Positions 2,815 to 41,717 of a stretch of 64,000 nucleotides of DNA are shown here, one piece after another (position 1 is the stretch's first letter; every line of letters starts with the position of its first letter). Position numbers and translations under genes: made by a program. The notes below the pieces were generated by a model that was not told the DNA's origin, did not search any database, and was given only the letters and a program-made list of their open reading frames with translations. This DNA is from Yuukianura sp. NJ FZ-2021 (Eukaryota). Location: NCBI GenBank assembly GCA_046563655.1, contig CM102284.1, positions 7,936,001-8,000,000 of the forward strand, given 5' to 3'.

Positions 2815-5800
2815 GTTTCTCGGGAGTTTTCAATGAAAAAAATGGAATTTTTGACAAAAATTGAGATTGGTTCACTTCAGATGGGCTTTCCGAGGCAAAA
2901 TATCGGAGTGCAATTTTCAGTTCTCAGATAGCTCATAATGTCTTTTTGGGGAGTTTTGAATGAAAAAAATGAATTTTTTGACAAAAGTTGAGCATGGTTC
3001 ACTTCAGATTGGCTTTCCGATGCAAAATATCGGAGTGGAATTTTCAGTTCTCAGATACCTCAGAATGACTTTTTGGGGAGTTTTCAATGAAAAAAATTGA
3101 TTTTTTTGACAAAAATTGAGATTGGTTCACTTCAGATGGGCTTTCCGAGGCAAAATATCGGAGTGCAATTTTCAGTTCTCAGATAGCTCAGAATGTTTTT
3201 TGGGGAGTTTTGAATGAAAAAAATGAATTTTTTGACAAAAATTGAGCTTGGTTCACTTCAGATGGGCTTTCCGAAGCAAAATATCGGAGTGCAATTTTCA
3301 GTTCTCAGATAGCTCAGAATGATTTTTGGGGAGCTTTGAATGAAAAAGAATGAATTTTTTGACAAAAGTTGAGCTTGGTTCACTTCAGATGGGCTTTCCG
3401 AGGCAAAATATCGGAGTGCAATTTTCAGTTCTCAGAAAGCTCAGAATGACTTTTTGGGGAGTTTTGAATGAAAAAGAATGAATTTTTTGACAAAAGTTCA
3501 GCTTGGTTCACTTCAGATGTGCTTTTCGAGGCAAAATATCGGAGTGCAATTTTCAGTTCTCAGATAGCTCAGAATGACTTTTTGGGGAGTTTTGAATGAA
3601 AAAAAAATGAATTTTTTGACAAAAGTTGAGATTGGTTCACTTCAGATTGGCTTTCCGAGGCAAAATATCGGAGTGCAATTTTCAGTTCTCAGAAAGCTCG
3701 GAATGACTTTTTGGGGAGTTTTGAATGAAAAAAAAATAATTTTTTGACAAAAATTGAGCTTGGTTCGCTTCAGATGGGCTTTCCGAGGCAAAATATCGGA
3801 GTGCAATTTTCAGTTCTCAGATAGCTCAGAATGATTTTTGGGGAGTTTTGAATGAAAAAAAATAATTTTTTGACAAAAATTGAGCTTGGTTCGCTTCAGA
3901 TGGGCTTTCCGAGGCAAAATATCGGAGTGCAATTTTCAGTTCTCAGATAGCTCAGAATGACTTTTTGGGGAGTTTTGAATGAAAAAGAATGAATTTTTTG
4001 ACAAAAGTTGAGCTTTGTTCACTTCAGATGGGCTTTCCGAGGCAAAATATCGGAGTGCAATTTTCAGTTCTCAGATAGCTCAGAATGACTTTTTGGGGAG
4101 TTTTGAATGAAAAAAAATGAATTTTTTGACAAAAGTTGAGATTGGTTCACTTCAGATTGGCTTTCCGAGGCAAAATATCGGAGTGCAATTTTCAGTTCTC
4201 AGAAAGCTCGGAATGACTTTTTGGGGAGTTTTGAATGAAAAAAAAATAATTTTTTGACAAAAATTGAGCTTGGTTCGCTTCAGATGGGCTTTCCGAGGCA
4301 AAATATCGGAGTGCAATTTTCAGTTCTCAGATAGCTCAGAATGACTTTTTGGGGAGTTTTGAATGAAAGAAAAATAATTTTTTGACAAAAATTGAGCTTG
4401 GTTCGCTTCAGATGGGCTTTCCGAGGCAAAATATCGGAGTGCAATTTTCAGTTCTCAGATAGCTCAGAATGACTTTTTGGGGAGTTTTGAATGAAAAAAA
4501 AATAATTTTTTGACAAAAATTGAGCTTGGTTCGCTTCAGATGGGCTTTCCGAGGCAAAATATCGGAGTGCAATTTTCAGTTCTCAGATAGCTCAGAATGA
4601 TTTTTGGGGAGTTTTGAATGAAAAAAAAATAATTGTTTGACAAAAATTGAGCTTGGTTCGCTTCAGATGGGCTTTCCGAGGCAAAATATCGGAGTGCAAT
4701 TTTCAGTTCTCAGATAGCTCAGAATGACTTTTTGGGGAGTTTTGAATGAAAAAAATTGATTTTTTGACAAAAATTGAGCTTGGTTCGCTTCAGATGGGCT
4801 TTCCGAGGCAAAATATCGGAGTGCAATTTTCAGTTCTCAGATAGCTCAGAATGATTTTTGGGGAGTTTTGAATGAAAAAAATTAATTTTTTGACAAAAAT
4901 TGAGCTTGGTTCACTTCAGATGGGCTTTCCGAAGCAAAATATCGGAGTGCAATTTTCAGTTCTCAGATAGCTCAGAATGACTTTTTGGGGAGTTTTGAAT
5001 GAAAAAAATGAATTTTTTGACAAAAGTTGAGCATGGTTCACTTCAGATGGGCTTTCCGAGGCAAAATATCGGAGTGCAATTTTCAGTTCTCAGATAGCTC
5101 AGAATGACTTTTTGGGGAGTTTTGAATGAAAAAAATGAATTTTTTGACAAAAGTTGAGATTGGTTCACTTCAGATTGGCTTTCCGAGGCAAAATATCGGA
5201 GTGCAATTTTCAGTTCTCAGAAAGCTCAGAATACCTTTTTGGGGAGTTTTGAATGAAAGAAAAATAATTTTTTGACAAAAATTGAGCTTGGTTCGCTTCA
5301 GATGGGCTTTCCGAGGCAAAATATCGGAGTGCAATTTTCAGTTCTCAGATAGCTCAGAATGATTTTTGGGGAGTTTTGAATGAAAAAAATAATTTTTTGA
5401 CAAAAATTGAGCTTGGTTCGCTTCAGATGGGCTTTCCGAGGCAAAATATCGGAGTGCAATTTTCAGTTCTCAGATAGCTCAGAATGACTTTTTGGGGAGT
5501 TTTCAATGAAAAAAATGGATTTTTTGACAAAAATTGAGATTGGTTCACTTCAGATGGGCTTTCCGAAGCAAAATATCGGAGTGCAATTTTCAGTTCTCAG
5601 AAAGCTCAGAATGACTTTTTGGGGAGTTTTGAATGAAAAAAAATAATTTTTTGACAAAATTGAGCTTGGTTCGCTTCAGATGGGCTTTCCGAGGCAAAAT
5701 ATCGGAGTGCAATTTTCAGTTCTCAGAAAGCTCAGAATGACTTTTTGGGGAGTTTTGAATGAAAAAAAATAATTTTTTGACAAAATTGAGCTTGGTTCGC

Positions 5801-8800
5801 TTCAGATGGGCTTTCCGAGGCAAAATATCGGAGTGCAATTTTCAGTTCTCAGATAGCTCAGAATGATTTTTGGGGAGTTTTGAATGAAAAAAAAATAATT
5901 TTTTGACAAAAATTGAGCTTGGTTCACTTCAGATGGGCTTTCCGAAGCAAAATATCGGAGTGCAATTTTCAGTTCTCAGATAGCTCAGAATGACTTTTTG
6001 GGGAGTTTTGAATGAAAAAAAATAATTTTTTGACAAAATTGAGCTTGGTTCGCTTCAGATGGGCTTTCCGAGGCAAAATATCGGAGTGCAATTTTCAGTT
6101 CTCAGAAAGCTCAGAATGACTTTTTGGGGAGTTTTGAATGAAAAAAATTAATTTTTTGACAAAAATTGACATTGGTTTACTTCAGATGGGCTTTCCGAAG
6201 CAAAATATCGGAGTGCAATTTTCAGTTCTCAGATAGCTCAGAATGACTTTTTGGGGAGTTTTGAATGAAAAAAAAATGAATTTTTTGACAAAAGTTGAGA
6301 TTGGTTCACTTCAGATTGGCTTTCCGAGGCAAAATATCGGAGTGCAATTTTCAGTTCTCAGAAAGCTCAGAATGACTTTTTGGGGAGCTTTGAATGAACA
6401 AAATGGAATTTTTTGACAAAAATTGAGATTGGTTCACTTCAGATTGGCTTTCCGAGGCAAAATATCGGAGTGCAATTTTCAGTTCTCAGATAGCTCAGAA
6501 TGACTTTTTGGGGAGTTTTCAATGAAAAAAATGGATTTTTTGACAAAAATTGAGATTGGTTCACTTCAGATTGGCTTTCCGAAGCAAAATATCGGAGTGC
6601 AATTTTCAGTTCTCAGATAGCTCAGAATGACTTTTTGGGGAGTTTTGAATGAAAAAAAAATGAATTTTTTGACAAAAGTTGAGATTGGTTCACTTCAGAT
6701 TGGCTTTCCGAATCAAAATATCGGAGTGCAATTTTCAGTTCTCAGAAAGCTCAGAATGACTTTTTGGGGAGTTTTGAATGAAAATATTTAATTTTTTGAC
6801 AAAAATTGAGATTGGTTCACTTCAGATGGGCTTTCCGAGGCAAAATATCGGAGTGCAATTTTCAGTTCTCAGATAGCTCAGAATGACTTTTTGCGGAGTT
6901 TTCAATAAAAAAAAATGGATTTTTTGACAAAAATTGAGATTGGTTCACTTCAGATTGGCTTTCCGAAGCAAAATATCGGAGTGCAATTTTCAGTTCTCAG
7001 ATAGCTCAGAATGACTTTTTGGGGAGTTTTGAATGAAAAAAAAATGAATTTTTTGACAAAAGTTGAGATTGGTTCACTTCAGATTGGCTTTCCGAGGCAA
7101 AATATCGGAATGCAATTTTCAGTTCTCAGAAAGCTCAGAATGACTTTTTGGAGAGTCTTGAATGAAAAAAATTAATTTTTTGACAAAAATTGAGCTTGGT
7201 TCGCTTCAGATGGGCTTTCCGAGGCAAAATATCGGAGTGCAATTTTCAGTTCTCTGATAGCTCAGAATGACTTTTTGGGGAGCTTTGAATGAACAAAATG
7301 GAATTTTTTGACAAAAATTGAGATTGGTTCACTTCAGATGTTCTTTCCGAGGCAAAATATCGGAGTGCAATTTTCAGTTCTCAGATAGCTCAGAATGACT
7401 TTTGGGGAGTTTTCAATGAAAAAAATGGATTTTTTGACAAAAATTGAGATTGGTTCGCTTCAGATGGGCTTTCCGAGGCAAAATATCGGAGTGCAATTTT
7501 CAGTTCTCAGAAAGCTCAGAATGACTTTTTGGGGAGTTTTGAATGAAAAAAATTAATTTTTTGACAAAAATTGAGATTGGTTTACTTCAGATGGGCTTTC
7601 CGAGGCAAAATATCGGAGTGCAATTTTCAGTTCTCAGATAGCTCAGAATGACTTTTGGGGAGTTTTCAATGAAAAAAATGGATTTTTTGACAAAAATTGA
7701 GATTGGTTCACTTCAGATTGGCTTTCCGAGGCAAAATATCGGAGTGCAATTTTCAGTTCTCAAATAGCTCATAATGTCTTTTTGGGGAGTTTTGAATGAA
7801 AAAAATGAATTTTTTGACAAAAGTTGAGATTGGTTCACTTCAGATTGGCTTTCCGAGGCAAAATATCGGAGTGCAATTTTCAGTTCTCAGAAAGCTCAGA
7901 ATGACTTTTTGGGGAGTTTTGAATGAAAAAAATTAATTTTTTGACAAAAATTGAGATTGGTTTACTTCAGATGGGCTTTCCGAGGCAAAATATCGGAGTG
8001 CAATTTTCAGTTCTCAGATAGCTCAGAATGACTTTTTGGGGAGTTTTCAATGAAAAAATGGATTTTTTGACAAAAATTGAGATTGGTTCACTTCAGATTG
8101 GCTTTCCGAGGCAAAATATCGGAGTGCAATTTTCAGTTCTCAGATAGCTCAGAATGACTTTTTGGGGAGTTTTGAATGAAAAAAAATTAATTTTTTGACA
8201 AAAGTTGAGCTTGGTTCACTTCAAATGTGCTTTCCGAGGCAAAATATCGGAGTGCAATTTTCAGTTCTCAGATAGCTCAGAATGACTTTTTGGGGAGTTT
8301 TGAATGAAAAAAATTGATTTTTTGACAAAAATTGAGATTGGCTCGCTTCAGATGGGCTTTCCGAGGCAAAATATCGGAGTGCAATTTTCAGTTCTCTGAT
8401 AGCTCAGAATGACTTTTTGGGGAGCTTTGAATGAACAAAATGGAATTTTTTGACAAAAATTGAGATTGGTTCACTTCAGATGTTCTTTCCGAGGCAAAAT
8501 ATCGGAGTGCAATTTTCAGTTCTCAGATAGCTCAGAATGACTTTTGGGGAGTTTTCAATGAAAAAAATGGATTTTTTGACAAAAATTGAGATTGGTTCAC
8601 TTCAGATGGGCTTTCCGAGGCAAAATATCGGAGTGCAATTTTCAGTTCTCAGATAGCTCAGAATGACTTTTTGCGGAGTTTTCAATAAAAAAAATGGATT
8701 TTTTGACAAAAATTGAGATTGGTTCACTTCAGATGGGCTTTCCGAGGCAAAATATCGGAGTGCAATTTTCAGTTCTCAGATAGCTCAGAATGACTTTTTG

Positions 8801-11800
8801 GGGAGTTTTGAATGAAAAAAATGAATTTTTTGACAAAAGTTGAGATTGGTTCACTTCAGATTGGCTTTCCGAGGCAAAATATCGGAATGCAATTTTCAGT
8901 TCTCAGAAAGCTCAGAATGACTTTTTGGAGAGTTTTGAATGAAAAAAATTAATTTTTTGACAAAAATTGAGATTGGCTCGCTTCAGATGGGCTTTCCGAG
9001 GCAAAATATCGGAGTGCAATTTTCAGTTCTCAGATAGCTCAGAATGACTTTTTGTGGAGCTTTGAATGAACAAAATGGAATTTTTTGACAAAAATTGAGA
9101 TTGGTTCACTTCAGATGGGCTTTCCGAGGCAAAATATCGGAGTGCAATTTTCAGTTCTCAGATAGCTCAGAATGACTTTTTGGGGAGTTTTCAATGAAAA
9201 AAATGGATTTTTTGACAAAAATTGAGATTGGTTCGCTTAAAGATGGGCTTTCCGAGGCAAAATATCGGAGTGCAATTTTCAGTTCTCAGAAAGCTCAGAA
9301 TGACTTTTTGGGGAGTTTTGAATGAAAAAAAATAATTTTTTGACAAAATTGAGCTTGGTTCGCTTCAGATGGGCTTTCCGAGGCAAAATATCGGAGTGCA
9401 ATTTTCAGTTCTCAGATAGCTCAGAATGACTTTTTGGGGAGTTTTGAATGAAAAAAATTGATTTTTTGACAAAAATTGAGCTTGGTTCGCTTCAGATGGG
9501 CTTTCCGAGGCAAAATATCGGAGTGCAATTTTCAGTTCTCAGATAGCTCAGAATGATTTTTGGGGAGTTTTGAATGAAAAAAAATAATTTTTTGACAAAA
9601 ATTGAGCTTGGTTCGCTTCAGATGGGCTTTCCGAGGCAAAATATCGGAGTGCAATTTTCAGTTCTCAGATAGCTCAGAATGACTTTTTGGGGAGTTTTGA
9701 ATGAAAAAAAATAATTTTTTGACAAAAATTGAGCTTGGTTCGCTTCACATGGGCTTTCCGAGGCAAAATATCGGAGTGCAATTTTCAGTTCTCAGATAGC
9801 TCAGAATGATTTTTGGGGAGTTTTGAATGAAAAAAATGAATTTTTTGACAAAAATTGAGCTTGGTTCACTTCAGATGGGCTTTCCGAAGCAAAATATCGG
9901 AGTGCAATTTTCAGTTCTCAGATAGCTCAGAATGACTTTTTGGGGAGTTTTGAATGAAAAAGAATGAATTTTTTGACAAAAGTTGAGCTTGGTTCACTTC
10001 AGATGGGCTTTCCGAGGCAAAATATCGGAGTGCAATTTTCAGTTCTCAGATAGCTCAGAATGACTTTTTGGGGCGTTTTGAATGAAAAAAAAATGAATTT
10101 TTTGACAAAAGTTGAGATTGGTTCACTTCAGATTGGCTTTCCGAGGCAAAATATCGGAGTGCAATTTTCAGTTCTCAGAAAGCTCAGAATACCTTTTTGG
10201 GGAGTTTTGAATGAAAGAAAAATAATTTTTTGACAAAAATTGAGCTTGGTTCGCTTCAGATGGGCTTTCCGAGGCAAAATATCGGAGTGCAATTTTCAGT
10301 TCTCAGATAGCTCAGAATGATTTTTGGGGAGTTTTGAATGAAAAAAAAATAATTGTTTGACAAAAATTGAGCTTGGTTCGCTTCAGATGGGCTTTCCGAG
10401 GCAAAATATCGGAGTGCAATTTTCAGTTCTCAGATAGCTCAGAATGACTTTTTGGGGAGTTTTCAATGAAAAAAATGGATTTTTTTGACAAAAATTGAGA
10501 TTGGTTCACTTCAGATGGGCTTTCCGAAGCAAAATATCGGAGTGCAATTTTCAGTTCTCAGAAAGCTCAGAATGACTTTTTGGGGAGTTTTGAATGAAAA
10601 AAAAATAATTTTTTGACAAAAATTGAGCTTGGTTCGCTTCAGATGGGCTTTCCGAGGCAAAATATCGGAGTGCAATTTTCAGTTCTCAGATAGCTCAGAA
10701 TGACTTTTTGGGGAGTTTTGAATGAAAAAAATTGATTTTTTGACAAAAATTGAGCTTGGTTCGCTTCAGATGGGCTTTCCGAGGCAAAATATCGGAGTGC
10801 AATTTTCAGTTCTCAGATAGCTCAGAATGATTTTTGGGGAGTTTTGAATGAAAAAAATTAATTTTTTGACAAAAATTGAGCTTGGTTCACTTCAGATGGG
10901 CTTTCCGAAGCAAAATATCGGAGTGCAATTTTCAGTTCTCAGATAGCTCAGAATGACTTTTTGGGGAGTTTTGAATGAAAGAAAAATAATTTTTTGACAA
11001 AAATTGAGCTTGGTTCGCTTCAGATGGGCTTTCCGAGGCAAAATATCGGAGTGCAATTTTCAGTTCTCAGATAGCTCAGAATGATTTTTGGGGAGTTTTG
11101 AATGAATAAAATAATTGTTTGACAAAAATTGAGCTTGGTTCGCTTCAGATGGGCTTTCCGAGGCAAAATATCGGAGTGCAATTTTCAGTTCTCAGATAGC
11201 TCATAATGACTTTTTGGGGAGTTTTGAATGAAAAAAAAAATAATTTTTTGACAAAAATTGAGCTTGGTTCGCTTCAGATGGGCTTTCCGAGGCAAAATAT
11301 CGGAGTGCAATTTTCAGTTCTCAGATAGCTCAGAATGACTTTTTGGGGAGTTTTGAATGAAAAAAATGAATTTTTTGACAAAAGTTGAGATTGGTTCACT
11401 TCAGATTGGCTTTCCGAGGCAAAATATCGGAGTGCAATTTTCAGTTCTCAGAAAGCTCAGAATACCTTTTTGGGGAGTTTTGAATGAAAGAAAAATAATT
11501 TTTTGACAAAAATTGAGCTTGGTTCGCTTCAGATGGGCTTTCCGAGGCAAAATATCGGAGTGCAATTTTCAGTTCTCAGATAGCTCAGAATGACTTTTGG
11601 GGAGTTTTCAATGAAAAAAATGGATTTTTTGACAAAAATTGAGATTGGTTCGCTTCAGATGGGCTTTCCGAGGCAAAATATCGGAGTGCAATTTTCAGTT
11701 CTCAGAAAGCTCAGAATGACTTTTTGGGGAGTTTTGAATGAAAAAAATTAATTTTTTGACAAAAATTGACATTGGTTTACTTCAGATGGGCTTTCCGAAG

Positions 11801-14800
11801 CAAAATATCGGAGTGCAATTTTCAGTTCTCAGATAGCTCAGAATGATTTTTGGGGAGTTTTGAATGAAAAAAATGAATTTTTTGACAAAAGTTGAGATTG
11901 GTTCACTTCAGATTGGCTTTCCGAGGCAAAATATCGGAGTGCAATTTTCAGTTCTCAGAAAGCTCAGAATGGCTTTTTGGGGAGCTTTGAATGAACAAAA
12001 TGGAATTTTTTGACAAAAATTGAGATTGGTTCACTTCAGATTGGCTTTCCGAGGCAAAATATCGGAGTGCAATTTTCAGTTCTCAGATAGCTCAGAATGA
12101 CTTTTTGGGGAGTTTTCAATGAAAAAAATGGATTTTTTGACAAAAATTGAGATTGGTTCACTTCAGATTGGCTTTCCGAGGCAAAATATCGGAGTGCAAT
12201 TTTCAGTTCTCAAATAGCTCATAATGTCTTTTTGGGGAGTTTTGAATGAAAAAAATGAATTTTTTGACAAAAGTTGAGATTGGTTCACTTCAGATTGGCT
12301 TTCCGAATCAAAATATCGGAGTGCAATTTTCAGTTCTCAGAAAGCTCAGAATGACTTTTTGGGGAGTTTTGAATGAAAATATTTAATTTTTTGACAAAAA
12401 TTGAGATTGGTTCACTTCAGATGGGCTTTCCGAGGCAAAATATCGGAGTGCAATTTTCAGTTCTCAGATAGCTCAGAATGACTTTTTGCGGAGTTTTCAA
12501 TAAAAAAAAATGGATTTTTTGACAAAAATTGAGATTGGTTCACTTCAGATTGGCTTTCCGAAGCAAAATATCGGAGTGCAATTTTCAGTTCTCAGATAGC
12601 TCAGAATGACTTTTTGGGGAGTTTTGAATGAAAAAAAAAATGAATTTTTTGACAAAAGTTGAGATTGGTTCACTTCAGATTGGCTTTCCGAGGCAAAATA
12701 TCGGAGTGGAATTTTCAGTTCTCAGAAAGCTCAGAATGACTTTTTGGAGAGTCTTGAATGAAAAAATTAATTTTTTGACAAAAATTGAGCTTGGTTCGCT
12801 TCAGATGGGCTTTCCGAGGCAAAATATCGGAGTGCAATTTTCAGTTCTCTGATAGCTCAGAATGACTTTTTGGGGAGCTTTGAATGAACAAAATGGAATT
12901 TTTTGACAAAAATTGAGATTGGTTCACTTCAGATGTTCTTTCCGAGGCAAAATATCGGAGTGCAATTTTCAGTTCTCAGATAGCTCAGAATGACTTTTGG
13001 GGAGTTTTCAATGAAAAAAATGGATTTTTTGACAAAAATTGAGATTGGTTCGCTTCAGATGGGCTTTCCGAGGCAAAATATCGGAGTGCAATTTTCAGTT
13101 CTCAGAAAGCTCAGAATGACTTTTTGGGGAGTTTTGAATGAAAAAAATTAATTTTTTGACAAAAATTGAGATTGGTTTACTTCAGATGGGCTTTCCGAGG
13201 CAAAATATCGGAGTGCAATTTTCAGTTCTCAGATAGCTCAGAATGACTTTTGGGGAGTTTTCAATGAAAAAAATGGATTTTTTGACAAAAATTGAGATTG
13301 GTTCACTTCAGATTGGCTTTCCGAAGCAAAATATCGGAGTGCAATTTTCAGTTCTCAGATAGCTCAGAATGACTTTTTGGGGAGTTTTGAATGAAAAAAA
13401 AAATGAATTTTTTGACAAAAGTGGTTCACTTCAGATTGGCTTTCCGAAGCAAAATATCGGAGTCCAATTTTCAGTTCTCAGAAAGCTCAGAATGACTTTT
13501 TGGGGAGTTTTGAATGAAAAAAATTAATTTTTTGACAAAAATTGAGATTGGTTTACTTCAGATGGGCTTTCCGAGGCAAAATATCGGAGTGCAATTTTCA
13601 GTTCTCAGATAGCTCAGAATGACTTTTTGGGGAGTTTTCAATGAAAAAATGGATTTTTTGACAAAAATTGAGATTGGTTCACTTCAGATTGGCTTTCAGA
13701 GGCAAAATATCGGAGTGCAATTTTCAGTTCTCAAATAGCTCAGAATGACTTTTTGGGGAGTTTTGAATGAAAAAAAATTAATTTTTTGACAAAAGTTGAG
13801 CTTGGTTCACTTCAAATGTGCTTTCCGAGGCAAAATATCGGAGTGCAATTTTCAGTTCTCAGATAGCTCAGAATGACTTTTTGGGGAGTTTTGAATGAAA
13901 AAAATTGATTTTTTGACAAAAATTGAGCTTGGTTCGCTTCAGATGGGCTTTCCGAGGCAAAATATCGGAGTGCAATTTTCAGTTCTCTGATAGCTCAGAA
14001 TGACTTTTTGGGGAGCTTTGAATGAACAAAATGGAATTTTTTGACAAAAATTGAGATTGGTTCACTTCAGATGTTCTTTCCGAGGCAAAATATCGGAGTG
14101 CAATTTTCAGTTCTCAGATAGCTCAGAATGACTTTTGGGGAGTTTTCAATGAAAAAAATGGATTTTTTGACAAAAATTGAGATTGGTTCACTTCAGATGG
14201 GCTTTCCGAGGCAAAATATCGGAGTGCAATTTTCAGTTCTCAGATAGCTCAGAATGACTTTTTGCGGAGTTTTCAATAAAAAAAATGGATTTTTTGACAA
14301 AAATTGAGATTGGTTCACTTCAGATTGGCTTTCCGAAGCAAAATATCGGAGTGCAATTTTCAGTTCTCAGATAGCTCAGAATGACTTTTTGGGGAGTTTT
14401 GAATGAAAAAAATGAATTTTTTGACAAAAGTTGAGATTGGTTCACTTCAGATTGGCTTTCCGAGGCAAAATATCGGAATGCAATTTTCAGTTCTCAGAAA
14501 GCTCAGAATGACTTTTTGGAGAGTTTTGAATGAAAAAAATTAATTTTTTGACAAAAATTGAGATTGGCTCGCTTCAGATGGGCTTTCCGAGGCAAAATAT
14601 CGGAGTGCAATTTTCAGTTCTCAGATAGCTCAGAATGACTTTTTGTGGAGCTTTGAATGAACAAAATGGAATTTTTTGACAAAAATTGAGATTGGTTCAC
14701 TTAAGATGGGCTTTCCGAGGCAAAATATCGGAGTGCAATTTTCAGTTCTCAGATAGCTCAGAATGACTTTTGGGGAGTTTTCAATGAAAAAAATGGATTT

Positions 14801-16744
14801 TTTGACAAAAATTGAGATTGGTTCGCTTCAGATGGGCTTTCCGAGGCAAAATATCGGAGTGCAATTTTCAGTTCTCAGAAAGCTCAGAATGACTTTTTGG
14901 GGAGTTTTGAATGAAAAAAATTAATTTTTTGACAAAAATTGAGATTGGTTTACTTCAGATGGGCTTTCCGAGGCAAAATATCGGAGTGCAATTTTCAGTT
15001 CTCAGAAAGCTCAGAATGAATTTTTGGGGAGTTTTGAATGAAAAAAAAAATAATTTTTTGACAAAAATTGAGCTTGGTTCGCTTCAGATGGGTTTTCCGA
15101 GGCAAAATATCGGAGTGCAATTTTCAGTTCTCAGATAGCTCAGAATGACTTTTTGGGGAGTTTTCAATGAAAAAATGGATTTTTTGACAAAAATTGAGAT
15201 TGGTTCACTTCAGATTGGCTTTCCGAGGCAAAATATCGGAGTGCAATTTTCAGTTCTCAGATAGCTCAGAATGACTTTTTGGGGAACTTTGAATGAACAA
15301 AATGGAATTTTTTGACAAAAATTGAGATTGGTTCACTTCAGATGGGCTTTCCGATGCAAAATATCGGAGTGCAATTTTCAGTTCGCAGGTAGCTCAGAAT
15401 GACTTTTTGCGGAGTTTTCAATAAAAAAAATGGATTTTTTGACAAAAATTGAGATTGGTTCACTTCAGATTGGCTTTCCGAAGCAAAATATCGGAGTGCA
15501 ATTTTCAGTTCTCAGAAAGCTCAGAATGACTTTTTGGGGAGTTTTGAATGAAAACAAAAATGAATTTTTTGACAAAAGTTGAGATTGGTTCACTTCAGAT
15601 TGGCTTTCCGAGGCAAAATATCGGAGTGCAATTTTCAGTTCTCAGAAAGCTCAGAATGACTTTTTGGGGAGTTTTGAATGAAAAAAATTAATTTTTTGAC
15701 AAAAATTGAGATTGGCTCGCTTCAGATGGGCTTTCCGAGGCAAAATATCGGAGTGCAATTTTCAGTTCTCAGATAGCTCAGAATGACTTTTTGGGGAGCT
15801 TTGAATGAACAAAATGGAATTTTTTGACAAAAATTGAGATTGGTTCACTTCAGATGGGCTTTCCGAGGCAAAATATCGGAGTGCAATTTTCAGTTCTCAG
15901 ATAGCTCAGAATGACTTTTTGCGGAGTTTTCAATGAAAAAAATGGATTTTTTGACAAAAATTGAGATTGGTTCGCTTCAGATGGGCTTTCCGAGGCAAAA
16001 TATCGGAGTGCAATTTTCAGTTCTCAGAAAGCTCAGAATGACTTTTTGGGGAGTTTTGAATGAAAAAAATTAATTTTTTGACAAAAATTGAGATTCGTTT
16101 ACTTCAGATGGGCTTTCCGAGGCAAAATATCGGAGTGCAATTTTCAGTTCTCAGATAGCTCAGAATGAATTTTTGGGGAGTTTTGAATGAAAAAAAAAAT
16201 AATTTTTTGACAAAAATTGAGCTTGGTTCGCTTCAGATGAGCTTTCCGAGGCAAAATATCGGAGTGTAATTTTCAGTTCTCAGATAGCTCAGAATGACTT
16301 TTTGGGGAGTTTTGAATGAAAAAAACTGATTTTTTGACAAAAATTGAGATCGGTTCACTTCAGATTGGCTTTCCGAGGCAAAATATCGGAGTGCAATTTT
16401 CAGTTCGCTGATAGCTCAGAATGATTTTTGGGGAGTTTTGAATGAAAAAAATGAATTTTTTGACAAAAATTGAGCTTGGTTCACTTCAGATGGGCTTTCC
16501 GAAGCAAAATATCGGAGTGCAATTTTCAGTTCTCAGATAGCTCAGAATGACTTTTTGGGGAGTTTTGAATGAAAAAAATTGATTTTTTGACAAAAATTGA
16601 GATTGGTTCACTTCAGATTGGCTTTCCGAGGCAAAATATCGGAGTGCAATTTTCAGTTCTCAGATAGCTCAGAATGACTTTTTGGGGAGTCTTGAATGAA
16701 AAAAATGAATTTTTTGACAAAATTGAGATTGGTTCACTTCAGAT
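2815..16744. repeat. Tandem satellite array, ~127-bp monomer, ~110 copies
   Basis: Approximate consensus: GAATGAAAAAAATGAATTTTTTGACAAAARTTGAGMTTGGTTCRCTTCAGATKGGCTTTCCGAGGCAAAATATCGGAGTGCAATTTTCAGTTCTCAGAWAGCTCAGAATGACTTTTTGGGGAGTTTT. Period 126-128 bp (e.g. CAGAT at 3771, 3897, 4025, 4153, 4281). Confidence 0.99.
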
Positions 16745-24653: not shown

Positions 24654-25344
24654 ATTCAAACCCAAATCACAAATTCAATTAGCAAACTAAATTAATCAAC
24701 TTCAGTTTAATTTGATTTGAAATGAAAACTTAAAAATCCAAGAACGAAAGGGGCTTTTGTCTTTTCAAAATTCAAAATTTAATTTGTTTTGTTTTTTGTT
24801 TTTCAGTTTCTCAGGAATTCGAAATTATTTTTCCCGCGAAAACTGAGTTTGAAAAAGTCTCATCCTGCCTCACTCTCTCTCACTCTCTTTACAATCTCAA
24901 AGTGCCCCAAAATTTCCCGAAAAACGCGGGAATGTACATTTTTGAATTTTGCAAACCCCGCCTCCTTGGAACTGTCAAATCCAATAGGAGAACAACACAT
25001 GATTTTGGCCTTTGCAAAAGATTAGTTTACATGTTTCGATTAGTGATTTTCACACTCGACACTCGAGGAGAATCCCCACTTACCAGTGTCAAACGCAAAC
25101 CAGAAACCAATTGATTTAATTGGGATAATTTTTAATTAAATCAAAGTGTAATCCTCCGGCAGGAGAGCAACATCCTCCAGTTGGAACTGGTACTCTCACT
25201 CTGTCTGTCTCACACAAGTCTACTCGAAACAAGGATTTTTGCTGTTGTTTTTGCGGATGGTAAACCTTCAGCTTCAACGTTTGGTATTCTGAAACTTAGA
25301 CCAAAAGTGACAAGTTTAATAACAATCCCTTGGAAAAACGGAAG
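24654..25344. promoter_or_regulatory. Probable bidirectional promoter region between NKAP and DNAJC3
   Basis: Head-to-head start codons ~690 bp apart. Inferred from gene arrangement only. Confidence 0.5.
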
Positions 25345-27319
25345 ATGAAGGTCGATATTCAGGGAAGGATGAAGATGGATACGCTCACTTTTGTGCTGTC
25401 CTGCATCAGCATATTTTGTTATCCAGGTAAGTTCCGTGCTCCGGGGGGATTGCTAAATCAAGATTAATGTTAGTGCAAATATGAAATAGTTGTGGCTAAC
25501 TGAAGTTATTTATTTTGTTTACAGGCGTAAACAGCGGTTCACCGGATGTACAGAAACATCTCGATATGGGAAGAAAGTTCTTGGAAAGCCGGCAGTTTCA
25601 CGATGCTCTGACACAATTTCACGAAGCGGTGGAACTGGACCCGGATAATTACCAAACCTACTTCAAAAGAGCTTTAGTTTTCTTAGCCCTTGGGAAATAC
25701 AATCAGGCTCTCAAGGATTTTGATAAAGTAATTGAACTCAAACCAGATTTTTCATCCGCCCATTTACAGCGCGCTACACTTTTGATGAAACAAGGACAGC
25801 TCGACTTGGCCCACATTGATTTCGAGAATGTGGTAAGCATTAACTCAGCTTTCTAAAAACTTACAATCCTTCGGTACTTGCACTTGCTTCAAATATTTTT
25901 TCTTCTTTCCTTTTAGTTGCGAAAGGAGCCGGACAGTATAGAAGGAAATCAGGGATATCAAAATGTGGACGAAGCATGGAAACTAAAGGAAGAACTAAAG
26001 CACTACTCAGAAATGAACGACTGCAACACTCAAGTCGAACTGCTTTCTAAACTAATTGAAATTTCCCCCTGGGATCCATCCCTTCGACATCAGCGATCTG
26101 ATTGCTATCTGACGCTTGGAGATTCGGAATATGCCATATCCGATCTCCGTTTTACAACGCGTCTGGTTCTGGACGACACTGATGGTTATTACAGGTTAGT
26201 TGAAAAATGAATTTCTGTTTTTAATGATGTTGGTTCAACTTATGACAGTGGCATTTTGAAATTTCAGACTGAGCTCTCTTCAGTACCAATTGGGTGAACT
26301 GGAAGAAGCCTTAAAAGAGATTCGTGAATGCCTTAAATTGGATCCAGAACACAAATTATGTTTTCCATTGTACAAAACGTTGAAGAAATTAGACAAGTTA
26401 TACCAGGATGCAGTCAAAGCCGGCGAAAGTGAGCACTACGACGAATGCGTAACCGATGTCAAAAAGGTAAGAAACGAAAGCTACGATATAATATAATCTT
26501 AATCATCTTCGTCTGTCTGGCTGTCCGTCATAACGTAATGTTCAGAACGGTTATTTCGGAAACTGTTGTACCTATTTTGGCTATTTTTGTTTTCAATCAA
26601 TTAGACTTAAATTTTTCAATTACTGTTCTAACTTTCAGGCGCTGAAAGTTGACAGCAAATTACCATCACAAATCGATTTCAAACTGAGACACAAACTGTG
26701 TTGGTGCCATTTAAAGTCAGGTCAAGGTGGATTAGCCGTAGACCACTGCACTAAAGCCATTCATATTAATGAAGACCCCGACGTCCTCTGCGACAGAGCA
26801 GAAGCCTTCTTGTTAGACGATTTTTTTGACCAAGGTAAACTTGAAAGTAACAAATCCTAATTAATCACTTCAATTAATTAATTAATTAATTAATCTTTAG
26901 CAATTCATGACTACAAGCGGGTGTTAGAAATTAATGAAGACAATCGAAGAGCTCGTGATGGTTTGTCTCGTGCTCAAAAGCTTCAGAAACAGTCCAAAAA
27001 ACGTGATTACTACAAGATCCTCGGTGTGAATCGAAATGCAAAGAAGGGAGAAATAGTCAAAGCTTACCGGAAACTAGCTCAAAAGTGGCATCCTGATAAC
27101 TTTCAAGGAGAAGAACAAAAGGCAGCTCAAGCCAAGTTTATTGACATCGCAGCGGCTAAGGAAGTTCTCACTGATCCCGAGAAACGGGCCAAGTTTGACA
27201 ACGGAGAGGATCCACTTGACCCGGAAGCTCAAAATGGGCATCATCATCACGGCGGACGAGGCGACTTTCCGTTCTTCTTTCAAAATTCTGGTCCTTTTCA
27301 TTTTAAATTTAACATGTAA
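25345..27319 (+). CDS. DNAJC3: DnaJ homolog subfamily C member 3 (P58IPK), multi-exon
   Basis: Signal-like N-terminus, TPR repeats (HLDMGRKFL..., [15 protein letters not shown]) and a C-terminal J domain RDYYKILGV...WHPDNF...[26 protein letters not shown]. Confidence 0.95.
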
Positions 27320-28643: not shown

Positions 28644-29321
28644 TTAGCGGAACATTTTCTTCATGGCGGACGCGGATTTTTCATTGAACTTTTTGAGCCG
28701 TTGATTTAGCAAGTCCAGTTTTAATTTAACGGCAGCATTTGTTGGTTCAAGTGCTTGGGCAGCATAGAGATCCGTTGCTGATTTTTCGTATTCCTGTAAA
28801 CAGGAATACAAAAGTGAACAATTGAGTCTGATTTTGGGTGAATTGATTGATTAATTAATTTACCTGAATTTCCATGAAGGCAGTTCCGCGACGGTATAAG
28901 GCTTTGACATTTTCCGGTTCCGATTCAAGTACTGAATTACACAAGTCGACAGCATAGGCCCAATTTCCTTTGAGTATATGACAATTGGCAGCATTATTTT
29001 GAAGTATTCCGAGTAAAGTCCTTTTACGTTCACAGATTTCTTTAGAAGTACATTTTGGATCAATTAGAATTAGAGCCTGCAAAACAATGAAAAAATTAGT
29101 AAAAATCTTATATTTGCGAAGTATCTTTGGAATTTCGTGAAAATCACCTTGATGCCGTTAGCAAAAGAGCGGAAGGCTCCTTCGATGTCTTTGGCCTCAA
29201 AACAAGTTTTCCCAGATTCTTTATAAGATGCTGCCAATTCCAATTTCTGTTCGTCATCCATGTTCAGAATGTCGTGATCAAGTAGCGAAGACGAAGATGC
29301 TGTTGACTCTGCCGCCGCCAT
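28644..29321 (-). CDS. FKBP-type TPR-only co-chaperone (TTC9/FKBPL-like), 3 exons (~29321-29148, 29076-28864, 28793-28644)
   Basis: TPR motifs KESGKTCFEAKDIEGAFRSF, NNAANCHIL, NVKALYRRG and C-terminus AMKKMFR*, typical of immunophilin TPR modules. Confidence 0.85.
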
Positions 29322-29323
29322 GA

Positions 29324-29773
29324 TTACTTTCCCTTTGTAACTTGTTTAATCCAGTTCAAGTAGGCGGAGCTTCCTTGCTCAATTGGAAGCCCAATTACTT
29401 CTGGAACGTCGTACGGATGATTTTGTTTGACGTAGCTCGATAACTCTTCAAAGAGATGCTCTTGTGTCTTGATCATCAACAGGAGTTCAGAATCTTCGTT
29501 AATCTTCCCTTCCCACTCGTACACTGATGTCACTTGAGGGATGATGTTGACACAGGCAGCGAGTTTCTTGGAGACGAGTCCAGTAGCAAGGGCTTTTCCT
29601 ACTTCAATTGATGGAACAGTCACAAAGACTGCTCGGAATGTGCTCATAGTAGGCTCTACCGAACTGTGTCGAGATTTGCCACTGCTAGTAGAGTAGACCA
29701 AGTAAAGGAAGTAACTCACCAACTGCTGCACCAAAACCAAGATGATAATAATTTGCAATACTTGTCTAAGCAT
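29324..29773 (-). CDS. CUTA: Protein CutA homolog
   Basis: VFVTVPS, KKLAACVNIIP, SVYEWEGKI, ELLLMIKT, HPYDVPEVI. Hydrophobic N-terminal extension; second Met at 29647. Confidence 0.93.
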   Translation of the reverse strand: MLRQVLQIIIILVLVQQLVSYFLYLVYSTSSGKSRHSSVEPTMSTFRAVFVTVPSIEVGKALATGLVSKKLAACVNIIPQVTSVYEWEGKINEDSELLLMIKTQEHLFEELSSYVKQNHPYDVPEVIGLPIEQGSSAYLNWIKQVTKGK

Positions 29774-29867
29774 AAGAATTCAGGAACCTACTGCTCGTCC
29801 GTACTGAAATTTAGAAAAGAACTAATTAAAATGCAATTCAATTGGATTCTCCTTGCAATGACTCACC

Positions 29868-30046
29868 GGTTGGAGAGTAGCAATGGGGTCCGTTTTTCTT
29901 TTAGTGTGAGCTATGTTTATCAAATCAGGACACAGTGCACAGTCCCTGAGTTAGGTTAGGTTAGGTGTTGAAGGTGCACTGTGTCCTGATTTGATAAACA
30001 TAGCTCACACTAAAAGAAAAACGGACCCCATTGCTACTCTCCAACC
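29868..30046. mobile_element. MITE family A, copy 1 (179 bp; ~73-bp TIRs starting GGTTGGAG; 8-bp TSD GACTCACC)
   Basis: Perfect long inverted arms. TSD at 29860-29867 and 30047-30054. Central TTAGG repeats. Confidence 0.92.
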
Positions 30047-30568
30047 GACTCACCTTTATTCTTCAGTACTAAATCCTCTCTTCATTAAAACAATTATTTG
30101 CAGCGCCTCTGAGTTATAAATCGATTGACTGATCAATCGAGTCTAACAACTGATGCTGATCGAAGAACCATATGACAATCGGTGGCAATCGCAATGCACA
30201 ACACAGTGTAATAAGGTAAGTTATTGGACGATAATTGGTTAATTTAATTTAATGACAAAAAGGAAAACCAATCATCTGTTTTGATTAAACAGTTTAATTT
30301 TTTTTCACTGTCTAAAAGTCACAGCTGTGAAATTTGAAATCAAAATTCCCGCGCCGCACAGAATAAAAATACAGAAAAGTACGTGCTGACTACGCGCTTG
30401 AAAAACAAAAACTAAATAATTAGTTCAAACTCAAAGTGAGCCAATTCTTCTAAAACTTGACGATTAATAGTAATTCAAAAATTAACGTAACGTAACGATA
30501 TGTGTCAGCAACAACTTTGCCTTTGCTCTTAACGTTTTATAATTATACCTAACTTTAGGGGGAAGAGC

Positions 30569-30723
30569 GGTTGGAGTCTAGTTTTGTAGTCCGTTTTTCT
30601 TTAGCCCATGAGTTAGGTTATGAAATCAGGACACAGTGCACGACGCACTGTGCACCTTCAACACCTAGCCTAACCTAACTCAGGGACTAAAAGAAAAACG
30701 GACTACAAAACTAGACTCCAACC
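30569..30723. mobile_element. MITE family A-related, copy 2 (155 bp; TIR GGTTGGAGTCTAG; 8-bp TSD GGAAGAGC)
   Basis: TSD at 30561-30568 and 30724-30731. Shares AAATCAGGACACAGTGCAC and a CCTAA-repeat core with copy 1. Confidence 0.9.
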
Positions 30724-31587: not shown

Positions 31588-32034
31588 CAAAGACGTTTCG
31601 TCTTTCGTGGGTGGAGGTGGAGGGAGTTGGTTGAATGGAGTTTAGCATGTATTTTAGCAAAGATTCGATAAATCCTTGAGTAATATTGAAAATAAGGTAT
31701 TATGACAAGTCAATATCCAAGTACAATCCAAGTTAAGAATTAATCCATAATTCATTCTAATTTATCTGCTCATTATTCAGGATATAGGAAGACTGACTGA
31801 AACTGGAACTTCCGGAACCTTCGTTAAGTTTTATTGACCGTTGACCTTCTTGACCATTTTAATATTCAGAAGTCAGCTGAGCTTGCTTGAGCAGCGCTTA
31901 AAGTATGACAAACCTGCACATTTCAAATGATTTCATCGTCATCCACACACTTAAAAATTCTACTGAATAGCTCTCAATCGAAGCGAAACACTTACTGATT
32001 AACTATTTTCTTTTTTCTTTTTTCCAGAAAAAAA

Positions 32035-34761
32035 ATGAGGGTAGACGGAGTAGATTCGCAGCATGAGGAACATGTAAAAATCCTAGAAGCCCTTGGATCC
32101 AATCTGAAGTCAGAAGTAGCCCGTGGACTTCGGTTACTGGACACTTGTGTTACGAACATCGCCCAAGCGAAATGGATTCTATCAAATGTAGACGAGTGTC
32201 TTTCTGGATTCTCAAAGGGCTGTCCAGTCTGCGGAACTCTCCCAGAACGACATGTTGCTAAAACTGTTGGAAAGGAAATCAAAACCAAGTCTAATGCTAA
32301 CTCTCCCGACTCCAATCAGAATCAGTTCAAACGATCTACTGAACCAGACCGTGTTGTCATTACGAACAAACCGTTAAAATCGTCTGCATTTCAGTCTCTC
32401 CGAAAACCATCTTCCTCGCCACCACCGCGGCCCAAACCTCCTACAACAAATGCTGCACCAGTACATCGGATCGGTCCACGTTCTAAGACACGCCCTGCCG
32501 AACCATCGGCTGCTGTTCCTGTTCCTGCTGAAGTTATAGTTGAGGATCCTCCGATACCTCCTAAACCCAAAATCATTGACATCACCACACCTCCGAGGAA
32601 ACTTCCAAAGATATTCAGCGTCGTGGTAGCCCAAACGGTAGTACAAGTTGAGTTGACCGACATAAAACCTTACCTACGCGGAAGAACTACGAAAGTGGAC
32701 TTAAGTAAACTCAATGGCTTTGTTTCTCCTACAAAACCAATCCCCTCTGACTTGAAATTCAAGCCGGAGGTGATCAAAGTCAGGTCACAAGCAACTAAAA
32801 AGGCTGTTCAGGGCCCTGGACCAGCTTCCAAGAGATTCATAGAATCCTTAAAGAAAACTGAATCTGTCTCAAAACCGAACATATTGGATTCCAGTAGCAG
32901 CGATGATGACAAACCAGTCATTGTCAAGCCCACGCCTCGTCCAACTCCAGCTCCTGTCGCAGCTCCAGCTCCACCTCCCGCAGTATCATCAAAGAAGAAC
33001 GCCAGTGACTCTGGAAGTGACTACGACTATAACTTTGCCAGCACAACAAATACCAATAACACCAAGAGTCTCAAAACGAACAAGAGTAAGATTGGATCTC
33101 AAGTGACTTTGAGCAAGAGACCGCGACCGCAGAGTACTGACAGTGACGAAGACTATGACTACAAGAAAAAGAAAGGCACAAAGTCCATTTTTAAAAAGAA
33201 AGTGTCCTCCAGTAGTTCTACCTCGGACGATTCGGATTCTGATGCTTATGAACGTAAAAAGAAGAAGAAAGTGAAACGTAAAGATTCCACAACGGACAAA
33301 GAAAAAGATAAAGCTTCATCATCTAAAAAAGAAGCTAAGACTGGAAGTGGAAGCAGATCTTCGTCAATCGTGACCTCTCGCATGACAGTTGCACTCGACC
33401 CGAGTCATCCCAGCTCAAGTAAGATTCTGAATTCGTTGAAATCGAAGAGCGATTCAAAAATTCGGAGAGATTCTGGATCGACTACTGGCAGTTACGCCAA
33501 ATCAGACACCAGCAGTAAGGATAAAGCGAGACATAAACCTGAAACTAAGGAAGTTCCCGCCAAATCCAAAGTCCAATCAGCTGATCCCGTACCGGAATCA
33601 ACTGTCAAACCGATAGAACCTACCGTTGCTCCGGTACCGCCAAAACCAGCAGCATATCGACCCGGTCCTGCCTCTCGCAAAAAATTGGCACAACCTCCCG
33701 TTCCTGCTGCTGCTGAAGCATCAACTTCGAAACCGACCGAACCGACTTCCAAACCGGACGCCGTGAGTGAACCGAAAACCGTGAATGTTGCCGAAACAGC
33801 TGATAAGTCTGAAACTGCTTCTACCAATGGAGAGAAGACCGCTACGACGACGGTGCAAGGAAATTCAGCGTCTAAAGCCGACCCATTTACGCTTCTGAAG
33901 CAGTCAATCAAAGCCAGTCACAGTAAGGCTCCGGAAGGTCCAGCAAAGGATAAGCCCGTTGCAGCTCCAGTAATCTCTAGTTTGATGAGCTCACTTGATT
34001 TGAAAGCCAAAGCTCAACTACTGGCCAAACTTACTCAAATGTCATCCAAGAAACAAGGTCCTCCAGTGTCCAAACCTACAACAGAAACTCCAGTTCAAGC
34101 ATCGCTGAAAGCGCTATCAGCGCTGGTCAAGCCTCAGAAACTAAAAGCTCTTCCTGCAGCTCCTCTTCCAGCTCCTGTTGACCTTGACACTGAAGATGAC
34201 CGCGGAATAGAACTGGGAGATGATGTTATTGGACGATGTATTGGTGACATTGAAGATACTGGCGCTGGAGGAGATGTTCCTGATAATACCGGTGATGCTG
34301 ATGCTGATGCTGGCAGTATCGACCAGACTGACTCCGAACCCCGCATTTCCATTACTTTTCAAGACTGTCTTTCTCCGACTCCGACGACACTTTATTCAGG
34401 GAATGACGATGCTGCTGAACCTTCTCCAGAACCGGACTCCTCTTCAACAACTACTGTGGAGAAGATCCAGCATCTTTTACTCAAGTTTGCTTTAGAACCG
34501 ATTGACGATGCGGCTCTGCTGCACTCCCAGGATAAACTGAACCAACTCTTTGCTTTTGGATTGCATTCGAACAGTGCTGAATTTGAAACGTTTCGAGGAG
34601 ATTTGCAAGACGGAGTTTGGTATCTCGTCAATGGGAAGTCTTTGGGCAAAGCAGTTTGTTCCGATACTGTCAGCCTTTTTGAGTGGGAGGCTGTGTCAGA
34701 GGAAGATTTGACCAGAATTCTGAGAGAGCTGGAAGGATACACTGCTTCTTGTGTGCGCTGA
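32035..34761 (+). CDS. Uncharacterised 908-aa low-complexity protein (Pro/Ser/Lys-rich, probable NLSs)
   Basis: Long single-exon ORF preceded by a splice acceptor (TTCCAG, ~32027). No family recognised. Confidence 0.75.
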   Translation: MRVDGVDSQHEEHVKILEALGSNLKSEVARGLRLLDTCVTNIAQAKWILSNVDECLSGFSKGCPVCGTLPERHVAKTVGKEIKTKSNANSPDSNQNQFKRSTEPDRVVITNKPLKSSAFQSLRKPSSSPPPRPKPPTTNAAPVHRIGPRSKTRPAEPSAAVPVPAEVIVEDPPIPPKPKIIDITTPPRKLPKIFSVVVAQTVVQVELTDIKPYLRGRTTKVDLSKLNGFVSPTKPIPSDLKFKPEVIKVRSQATKKAVQGPGPASKRFIESLKKTESVSKPNILDSSSSDDDKPVIVKPTPRPTPAPVAAPAPPPAVSSKKNASDSGSDYDYNFASTTNTNNTKSLKTNKSKIGSQVTLSKRPRPQSTDSDEDYDYKKKKGTKSIFKKKVSSSSSTSDDSDSDAYERKKKKKVKRKDSTTDKEKDKASSSKKEAKTGSGSRSSSIVTSRMTVALDPSHPSSSKILNSLKSKSDSKIRRDSGSTTGSYAKSDTSSKDKARHKPETKEVPAKSKVQSADPVPESTVKPIEPTVAPVPPKPAAYRPGPASRKKLAQPPVPAAAEASTSKPTEPTSKPDAVSEPKTVNVAETADKSETASTNGEKTATTTVQGNSASKADPFTLLKQSIKASHSKAPEGPAKDKPVAAPVISSLMSSLDLKAKAQLLAKLTQMSSKKQGPPVSKPTTETPVQASLKALSALVKPQKLKALPAAPLPAPVDLDTEDDRGIELGDDVIGRCIGDIEDTGAGGDVPDNTGDADADAGSIDQTDSEPRISITFQDCLSPTPTTLYSGNDDAAEPSPEPDSSSTTTVEKIQHLLLKFALEPIDDAALLHSQDKLNQLFAFGLHSNSAEFETFRGDLQDGVWYLVNGKSLGKAVCSDTVSLFEWEAVSEEDLTRILRELEGYTASCVR

Positions 34762-40427: not shown

Positions 40428-41717
40428 AAAGGGAAACGTAGTTCGTTTATGGGACAGAGCGGACCCGTACGATTTGGCTGAAAATTTAACCACGTGTTCT
40501 CGACAACTATAGGAACAACTTTTGTACAGGGTCCAGATGGGGCATCAAACGGTTTGACCTCAAGGGGTCACCAAAGTCACGGGGTCATCGTATGACAACC
40601 CCCTTCGAGTAAGGTGTCGTTGGAAAGCCCTTGACCTCGTGGTTTAACAAATGTATGGGTATCAATACTTTGGTTCAGGCGTTTAGACGTAAGGGGTCAC
40701 TGAAGGTCAACTATGGAAAAAGTTGCAAAATACCAAAAAGTGAAAATCGTTTCATGACAACCGACAAAATAACTGGTTGGAGAGTAGCAAAGGGGTCCGT
40801 TTTTCTTTTAGTGTGAGCTATGTTTATCAAATCAGGACACAGTGCACAGTCCCTGAGTTAGGTTAGGTTAAGTGTTGAAGGTGCACTGTGTCCTGATTTG
40901 ATAACCTAACTCACACTAAAAGAAAAACGGACCCCATTGCTACTCTCCAACCAAATAACTTATACAAAAGTTGTTCCAATCAAAAGAATATGCAACTTTT
41001 CCCTCTTGCATTTTGTTCTGCGGCAAACAGCTGATGAGATACCGAGGCAGGTGAAACCGGCTAAAAGTAGATTTCAGATAGGACTTTCGCGACGGAAAAC
41101 GGAATCGGATTCTCTTCTACTGCTTTGACTTAAACGACAGCATATTGTATTAAGAAGTTTTTTTCTTGAACCTTTTCCGTGTTTTGTGGGAATCTAGAGG
41201 TGTATAACCGTCGTTATTATCCAATCTCCATATACCGTCGCCAAAGCCCTATCCGAAATCTACTTTTAGCAGTTTTGGCCTTGCTCGGTATCTCATCAGC
41301 TGTTCGCCGTAGAACAAAATGCAAGAGGGAAAAGTTTCCCATTCTTTTGATTGGAACAACTTTTGTATAAGTCATTTTGTCGGTTGTCATGAAACGATTT
41401 TCACTTTTTGGTATTTTGCAATTTTTTCCATAGTTGACATTCAGTGACCCGTTCCGTCTAAACGCCTGAACCAAAGTATTGATACCCATACATTTGTTGA
41501 ACCACGAGGTCAAGAGCTTTCCAACTACACCTTACTCGAGGGGGGTTGTCATAAGATGACCCCACGACCTTTGGTGACCCCTTGGGGCCAAACCGTTTGA
41601 TGCCCCATCTGGACCCTGTACAAAAGTTGTTCCTATAGTTGTCGAGAACACGTGGTTAAATTTTCAGCCAAATCGTACGGGTCCGCTCTGTCCCATAAAC
41701 GAACTACGTTGCCCTTT
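40428..41717. mobile_element. Large foldback element with ~480-bp inverted arms and ~140-bp spacer
   Basis: 40428-~41095 is the reverse complement of ~41235-41717, apart from the nested MITE. No TSD recognised. Confidence 0.88.
40775..40952. mobile_element. MITE family A, copy 3, nested in the foldback left arm (8-bp TSD AAATAACT)
   Basis: Near-identical to 29868-30046. TSD at 40767-40774 and 40953-40960. Empty site present in the right arm. Confidence 0.93.

Follow-up and report, generated by a model that had tools for sequence, protein, structure and literature searches.

A probably dicistronic locus pairing CutA with a TPR-only BDBT/FKBP-like gene, conserved among springtails

Introduction

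FlyBase holds 159 dicistronic pairs for Drosophila melanogaster, amounting to 2.5% of gene models, and 45 of these 159 have no monocistronic isoform, according to the part of Crosby et al. (2015, PMC4528330) covered here. The original prediction for the locus described below considered dicistronic mRNAs to be rare in arthropods, which these figures contradict. The two reading frames of a fly pair can lie extremely close to each other: by hand count, 18 of 41 junctions in part 1 of the 6 parts of File S1 of that paper measure 20 nt or less or overlap, and short spacers in the portion covered include those of tectonic/CG42730 (2 nt), CG34314/Rad1 (1 nt) and CG9960/Snapin (18 nt; PMC4528330). As far as this source describes them, the D. 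melanogaster loci resemble ours in having unrelated head-to-tail ORFs, a very short spacer and a small ORF1. They involve other genes, however, and are backed by transcripts, whereas the transcript evidence for our pair is indirect.

Two modes of translating a downstream ORF are of interest for comparison. Leaky scanning has been tested in vivo for green-algal bicistrons, which share with our locus a weak first ATG, few ATGs 5' of ORF2, a variable frame relation and a short spacer (PMC11892635, in the sections covered). Our locus differs from them by a second in-frame ORF1 ATG with A at -3. For termination-reinitiation the viral reference is TURBS, whose motif is UGGGA. In the calicivirus and influenza B cases, stop and start are likewise close together and out of frame (PMC10275272, in the portion covered). 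In contrast to these viruses, our locus and its metagenomic relative (L002, see below) have no UGGGA and no conserved fold upstream, and their spacer is not fixed.

The downstream gene of our locus is related to the family of Bride of Doubletime (BDBT, CG17282). Fly Bdbt uses its N-terminal domain to bind the kinase Dco/Dbt (PMC7402468, partial text), and BDBT is described as not reliably identifiable outside Diptera (PMC9794997, partial text). Regarding the springtails, the available part of a 145-taxon study leaves their orders at two topologies, with Symphypleona placed either with Neelipleona or with Entomobryomorpha (bioRxiv 10.64898/2026.07.05.736609). No report of a CutA-TPR pair was found among the top papers listed in the literature searched, a coverage outside which most subscription papers and preprint supplements (bioRxiv) fall. 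We take CG11590 to be the fly identifier of CutA. None of the names CutA, CG11590, bdbt and CG17282 appears in the 11 of 12 supplements of PMC4528330 that were covered.

Results

The stretch of DNA analysed, hereafter the window, comprises 64,000 nt (G000:C2:7936001-8000000) of an assembly of 98.7 Mb in 22 contigs (G000), and its features are collected in Table 1. On the minus strand, the CutA stop codon TAA (29326-29324) is followed by the dinucleotide TC (29323-29322) and by the ATG of a TPR gene (29321-29319), which has A at -3 and G at +4. On rereading the sequence, all coordinates given in the original prediction hold, as do the TAA-TC-ATG junction and the start context.

Table 1. Coordinates of the features at and upstream of the CutA-TPR junction (positions in the window)
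Feature	Coordinates	Strand	Basis or remark
ORF1, CutA	29324..29773	-	Intronless, uninterrupted; PF03091, E 2e-38
ATTAAA hexamer	29345..29350	-	In CutA Trp-Ile-Lys codons; 21 nt to the end of the stop
ORF1-ORF2 spacer	29322..29323	-	2 nt
ORF2 exon 1	29148..29321	-	TPR-only BDBT/FKBP-like protein
ORF2 exon 2, TPR repeats	28864..29076	-	TPR_1, E 1.9e-4
ORF2 exon 3, ending in FKBP/Cyp40-type C-terminal helix	28644..28793	-	Sequence and alignment
Putative core promoter and non-coding first exon	30054..30153	-	Motifs only
Putative splice acceptor (29803), with a short leader 5' of the first CutA ATG	29774..29803	-	T-rich tract and CAG
MITE, 179 nt, in putative 5' intron	29868..30046	.	Terminal inverted repeats, 8-bp target duplication GGTGAGTC

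ORF1, which belongs to Pfam CutA1, has one match in G000. It encodes 149 aa from ATG 29773 or 107 aa from ATG 29647, and these two forms would likely be a membrane or secreted protein (long) and a soluble one (short). The first ATG lies in a weak context both in the window and in L002, a metagenomic relative; the second has A at -3, with an identical flank in L002. No out-of-frame ATG is found in the window CutA ORF. The long form is kept in L002/P0006 (proteins are designated here by P numbers), and the N-terminal extension (29773-29648), which precedes the second ATG, is hydrophobic with a hydropathy peak of 2.4 and is conserved in L002 and others. CutA has no intron in the window and L002, and that of P0059 appears to contain one; while the intronless state would fit a retrocopy, which is a conjecture, the P0059 intron speaks otherwise.

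The original prediction saw no room for a CutA polyA site. This was overstated, as an ATTAAA lies inside the last CutA codons (29350-29345), and L002 has one at a matching distance from the stop (579-584). Back-translation, inspected by eye, indicates that the hexamer is not present in the P0010 species. It is a possible poly(A) signal, with which a CutA-only mRNA would end near the stop without a 3' UTR.

When metagenomes were scanned with the CutA alignment, 80 loci came up; L002 is the sole close relative among them (86%), the other 79 showing 39-56% identity; in the TPR alignment (A3), no stretch conserved enough for such a scan was found. Read directly, L002 consists of CutA with a TAG stop, a 16-nt spacer without ATG and the TPR ORF, whose ATG has T at -3 and an in-frame TAA immediately 5' of it. 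This TPR ORF lacks intron 1 and has intron 2 in common with the window. In Allacma fusca, the CutA and TPR proteins (CAG7730625.1 and CAG7730626.1) are consecutive accessions from one 19,104-nt contig. Moreover, 8 of 11 springtail-like CutA entries have a contig size identical, in nt, to that of one of the 20 springtail-like TPR entries, 12 of which are left without a CutA partner by this measure. Among 43 other CutA entries on contigs <8 kb, used as controls, none matched a springtail-like TPR size and two matched the contig size of some BDBT-like entry, which we take as the chance rate. For P0002, a full-length spliced TPR protein on a 3,386-nt contig, a CutA entry of equal contig size was not found.

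Since the pairing recurs in relatives, the adjacency of CutA and the TPR gene exceeds chance; looked for in relatives, as the original prediction had called for, the pairing is seen in L002 and A. fusca, and the shared contig sizes of 8 of the 11 entries point to it. Independent assemblies show the same layout, on which ground an annotation or assembly artefact was rejected. The pairing seems to be lineage-specific, because the two genes lie on differently sized contigs in all three hymenopterans present in both lists (Nasonia vitripennis, Belonocnema kinseyi and Trichogramma kaykai). Across the paired lineages, the TPR proteins are only ~40-45% identical.

A third spacer could be deduced from proteins. 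The first ten residues of P0129 equal a shifted frame of the last ten codons of P0010 plus its stop, a 31-nt overlap given by 1 of the 120 CutA ends tested and by no other of 15 TPR starts. This places the first Met of P0129 17 nt after the P0010 stop, on a contig of 1,202 nt. The measured spacers are therefore 2 nt (window), 16 nt (L002) and 17 nt (P0010/P0129), all three below 20 nt. With such variation, conservation of the 2-nt spacing itself was rejected, and the original reading of the 2-nt geometry as in itself a pointer to termination-reinitiation lacks support. In the pairwise DNA alignment of the window and L002, judged by eye, the ORF2 start appears shifted yet near the CutA stop. 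A gene with a DnaJ domain and TPRs (about 25300-27319 of the window, plus strand) converges on the CutA-TPR unit and is the downstream neighbour in L002 too; it is presumably DNAJC3/P58IPK-like.

ORF2 is composed of three exons of 174, 213 and 150 nt, joined across GT-AG introns of 71 and 70 nt, and encodes 178 aa with no internal stop. The intact three-exon TPR gene originally proposed is confirmed in its exon structure by P0002, a full-length 170-aa relative that matches all three exons at 64-73%. Longer proteins searched with exon 2 as query gave 29 candidates, with four relatives among them, P0002 included. TPR intron 1 (29147-29077) is present in the window and absent from L002 and from the genomic calls P0003, P0004, P0126 and P0127; it is probably a recent gain.

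In the TPR profile search, which collected 162 proteins at E 1e-12 or better, 13 short forms rank first, followed by insect proteins of ~290 aa with PF18023 and TPR. Conversely, the best G000 match of both Nasonia P0139 and Orchesella dallaii P0256 (CAL8111520.1) is the ORF2 locus, over the TPR part only, and the window TPR protein forms one well-supported tree group with P0256 and P0258 (98/90). On the basis of the profile search, these reverse best matches and the shared tree group, we assign ORF2 to the arthropod BDBT/FKBP-like family as a TPR-only member, which sharpens the earlier and correct label of FKBP-type TPR. Weak matches, below the curated cut-off, were obtained to PF18023 in P0256 and P0258 and to PF21603 in the close relatives P0129 and P0133. 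The named close relatives come from A. fusca and O. dallaii, which would put the genome among the springtails.

The kinship of ORF2 with BDBT and the PF18023+TPR proteins is seen in its grouping with P0139 and P0256, and its three-TPR region and C-terminal helix are like those of FKBP51/52 and Cyp40. Orthology to dipteran BDBT itself is uncertain, and the ORF2 trees have no dipteran sequence among their rows. The K-E, N, K and R positions of the TPR protein align with FKBP51 and would be carboxylate clamp residues (putative Hsp90 binding). For the structure model of P0002 (pLDDT 71, pTM 0.56), the best hits are TPR domains, those of FKBP52, FKBP51 and FKBP38; in the ESM Atlas, generic FKBP/TTC9-type TPR clusters were the only result. 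ORF2 differs from BDBT in having no N-terminal FKBP-like domain, the part that binds Dbt/Dco in flies (PMC7402468, partial text). Comparison with two-domain relatives makes this absence evident: Orchesella and insects retain the domain, and the window has CutA in its place. Elsewhere in G000, P0139 and P0256 as queries gave no convincing match to an FKBP-like domain, and a PF18023 search of G000 gave no match, nor did its controls.

A 33-row TPR tree, 7 rows of which are fragments of unknown architecture, has 15 TPR-only rows on one side of a branch with 81/84 (not starred), including the Allacma type, the P0128-P0130 type and the window's group; the two-domain springtail proteins form a separate group (96/93). 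The first TPR tree was a quick version, and the CutA tree, built on a small number of columns, resolves little. The CutA-TPR unit is old in springtails and most likely arose once: CutA would have come to lie 5' of a BDBT-like gene, whose FKBP-like-domain exons would have been lost. The tree fits such a single origin with domain loss and does not prove it.

Evidence for a common transcript comes from relatives. The proteins P0129, P0131 and P0386 (contigs of 1,202, 2,326 and 1,274 nt) read through the conserved intron-2 position, where the genomic calls P0001, P0003, P0004, P0126, P0127 and P0132 run into the intron. For this reason the three contigs, to which the CutA entries P0010, P0009 and P0011 are assigned by size, and P0010 also directly by the 31-nt overlap, look like spliced transcripts carrying both ORFs, their content being deduced from proteins and contig sizes, with the caveat that short-read assembly may merge overlapping mRNAs. 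P0011 and P0386 match Allacma proteins, and their 1,274-nt contig has 308 nt beyond both ORFs, too little for an FKBP-like domain plus UTRs. The locus has one of the marks of a dicistronic mRNA locus (SO:0000722): its two ORFs are distinct, intact and conserved and share a strand. Considering the conserved adjacency together with the apparently spliced contigs, it is very probable that a single mRNA encodes CutA and the TPR protein in the window, so that this central claim of the original prediction receives indirect support.

Upstream of CutA, the putative promoter and first exon contain Inr-like TCAGTT (30153) and TCAGTC (30132), a DRE-like AATCGATT (30126) and a donor AAG/GTGAGT at 30053. 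Inside CutA, none of the 10 core-promoter patterns scanned was matched. An acceptor similar to that at 29803 is seen by eye 5' of the CutA ATG in L002, the sequence of which stops short of the promoter/first-exon region. A possible 9-codon uORF (30085-30056) lies in the putative first exon and ends just 5' of the donor. The MITE contains CCTAA repeats internally. Its position coincides exactly with that of the putative 5' donor, which it duplicates. It is young and one of 12 full-length copies in G000 at 96-100%, another of which lies at 40775-40951 of the window; an older relative is found at 30569-30688. The window also contains a 127-bp satellite array (2822-16744; ~110 copies, 93% identity, strong GC skew) and, on the plus strand at 31999-34761, divergent from the CutA unit, an uninterrupted low-complexity frame of 920 codons, rich in Ser/Lys/Pro and without Pfam match.

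With regard to the way ORF2 is read, out-of-frame ATGs in CutA were compared with synonymous resampling, using codon usage from unverified long frames and two related sequences: the window has 0 against 3.0 expected (P 0.014) and L002 has 1 against 3.0 (P 0.11), whereas the TPR ORFs have 8 (window) and 9 (L002) against 6.3 and 5.8. The depletion spans the entire CutA and not just its stop-proximal part. In Met content, the CutA core does not fall clearly below that of other animals (8 versus 91 proteins). On the way to ORF2, scanning ribosomes would meet three in-frame ATGs and perhaps a leader uORF.

At the junction itself, stop and start are within a few tens of nucleotides of each other, as in TURBS-type cases, and an 18S-complementary UGGGA in a structured element is not found. 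In agreement with the original prediction, TGGGA is absent from the 119 nt 5' of the window ORF2 ATG, as it is from about 120 nt in L002. Compared with shuffles, the junction fold is nothing unusual (z -0.78 and +0.27), and all four regions folded at the junction and the second ATG are no better than shuffles (z -1.27 to +1.08). Likewise, there is no strong splice acceptor just 5' of the ORF2 ATG, as had been stated, and a pyrimidine-rich (trans-splice type) acceptor next to it was found in neither the window nor L002.

Discussion

We propose that one promoter 5' of CutA would produce a spliced mRNA with two separate ORFs, encoding CutA and a 178-aa TPR-only co-chaperone. Most scanning ribosomes would initiate at either CutA ATG, and a fraction would leak past them, travel ~450 nt without an out-of-frame ATG and initiate at the TPR ATG. 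The original prediction had left the choice between reinitiation and leaky scanning, and the sequence evidence leans to the latter: given a shared mRNA, we consider it reasonably likely that leaky scanning is the main route to ORF2, and the depletion of out-of-frame ATGs in CutA modestly favours it. Against it, ATG 29647, with its A at -3, should stop most leaking ribosomes, the in-frame ATGs and the possible uORF precede ORF2, the TPR ATG of L002 has T at -3, the Met content of the CutA core gives no clear signal, and spacers below 20 nt in all three cases are not needed by leaky scanning. Our explanation as a whole, combining a shared mRNA, ORF2 translation by leaky scanning and a unit that is old in springtails with a likely single origin, has a slight balance of probability in its favour.

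The short spacers fit at least as well with the idea that ORF2 of a shared mRNA owes its translation mostly to ribosomes that terminate at the end of the complete CutA ORF and then reinitiate, independently of a viral-type TURBS. The ORF2 start, which by eye has moved in the alignment yet remained close to the stop, also agrees with this idea, and leakage may be low past a second CutA ATG with A at -3. Nevertheless, we regard such reinitiation as unlikely. The junction has neither a TGGGA within ~120 nt nor an unusual fold in the window and L002, findings on which TURBS was rejected, and viral reinitiation after a long ORF requires TURBS (PMC10275272, in the portion covered). Furthermore, the ATG depletion extends along the whole of CutA, and short spacers are common in fly dicistronic loci as well (PMC4528330, in the part covered). 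A different possibility is that the TPR protein comes from an mRNA of its own, either with a start site within CutA or by a first-exon splice past the last CutA ATG; the CutA mRNA may then end at the internal ATTAAA, the long transcript being minor or an assembly merge. The hexamer located 21 nt ahead of the last base of the CutA stop, in the window and L002 alike, an acceptor-like CAG site at 29400 with an L002 equivalent at 529, and the monocistronic isoforms that 114 of the 159 fly dicistronic loci also have (PMC4528330, in the part covered) would be in line with a separate mRNA. However, the 29400 site, with 5 T in 16 nt, is a weaker acceptor than those inferred to be real (9, 12 and 11) and falls on conserved Pro-Glu codons, the hexamer coincides with codons for Trp-Ile-Lys and is missing from the P0010 species, no core-promoter pattern was matched within CutA, and both ORFs are deduced to be in three transcript-like contigs. 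A TPR mRNA of this kind seems improbable to us.

In the two-domain relatives, the place occupied by CutA encodes the N-terminal domain, and a donor-like AAA/GTAATC overlaps the CutA stop. Both observations would suit a CutA-TPR fusion protein, made by readthrough, frameshift or splicing, in which CutA replaces the lost FKBP-like domain. Such a fusion is highly improbable because spacers of different lengths give different frame relations among species, on which ground readthrough was rejected. In addition, the in-frame TAA directly precedes the TPR ATG of L002, splicing from the donor-like site to exon 2 or 3 would break the frame, and there is free length variation at the C-termini of CutA and the N-termini of the TPR proteins. 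None of the four relatives retrieved among longer proteins with TPR exon 2 is fused; the CutA-query search reached proteins up to 188 aa.

The locus is real and conserved, and it is probably dicistronic. New are the pairing of CutA with a TPR gene, the depth to which it is conserved and the loss of a domain from ORF2; the dicistronic kind is already known from Drosophila, and with 159 such pairs in flies the gene arrangement is ordinary as such. With spacers and start contexts that differ naturally between lineages, the unit lends itself to tests that set leaky scanning against reinitiation, and it illustrates a possible birth route of dicistronic units, in which the downstream gene loses a domain. 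Annotation pipelines may overlook one of the two ORFs at loci of this type.

The unit may also be of use for the relations of springtail orders. Allacma (Symphypleona) has it, while Orchesella dallaii (Entomobryomorpha) has the two-domain protein and apparently not the unit. Being hard to reverse, the CutA-TPR unit could mark these relations if the window's lineage lies outside Symphypleona. A doubtful but consequential reading, which we also consider, is that CutA replaced the kinase-binding FKBP-like domain once, long ago, and that the spacer has stayed below 20 nt across deep springtail lineages because ribosomes that have translated the whole of CutA resume at the TPR ORF, with no tether of the viral type. 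If true, animal cells would here reinitiate efficiently downstream of a long ORF, and the unit would be a character for springtail orders that is in effect never reversed, shared by Symphypleona and the window's lineage and missing from Orchesella.
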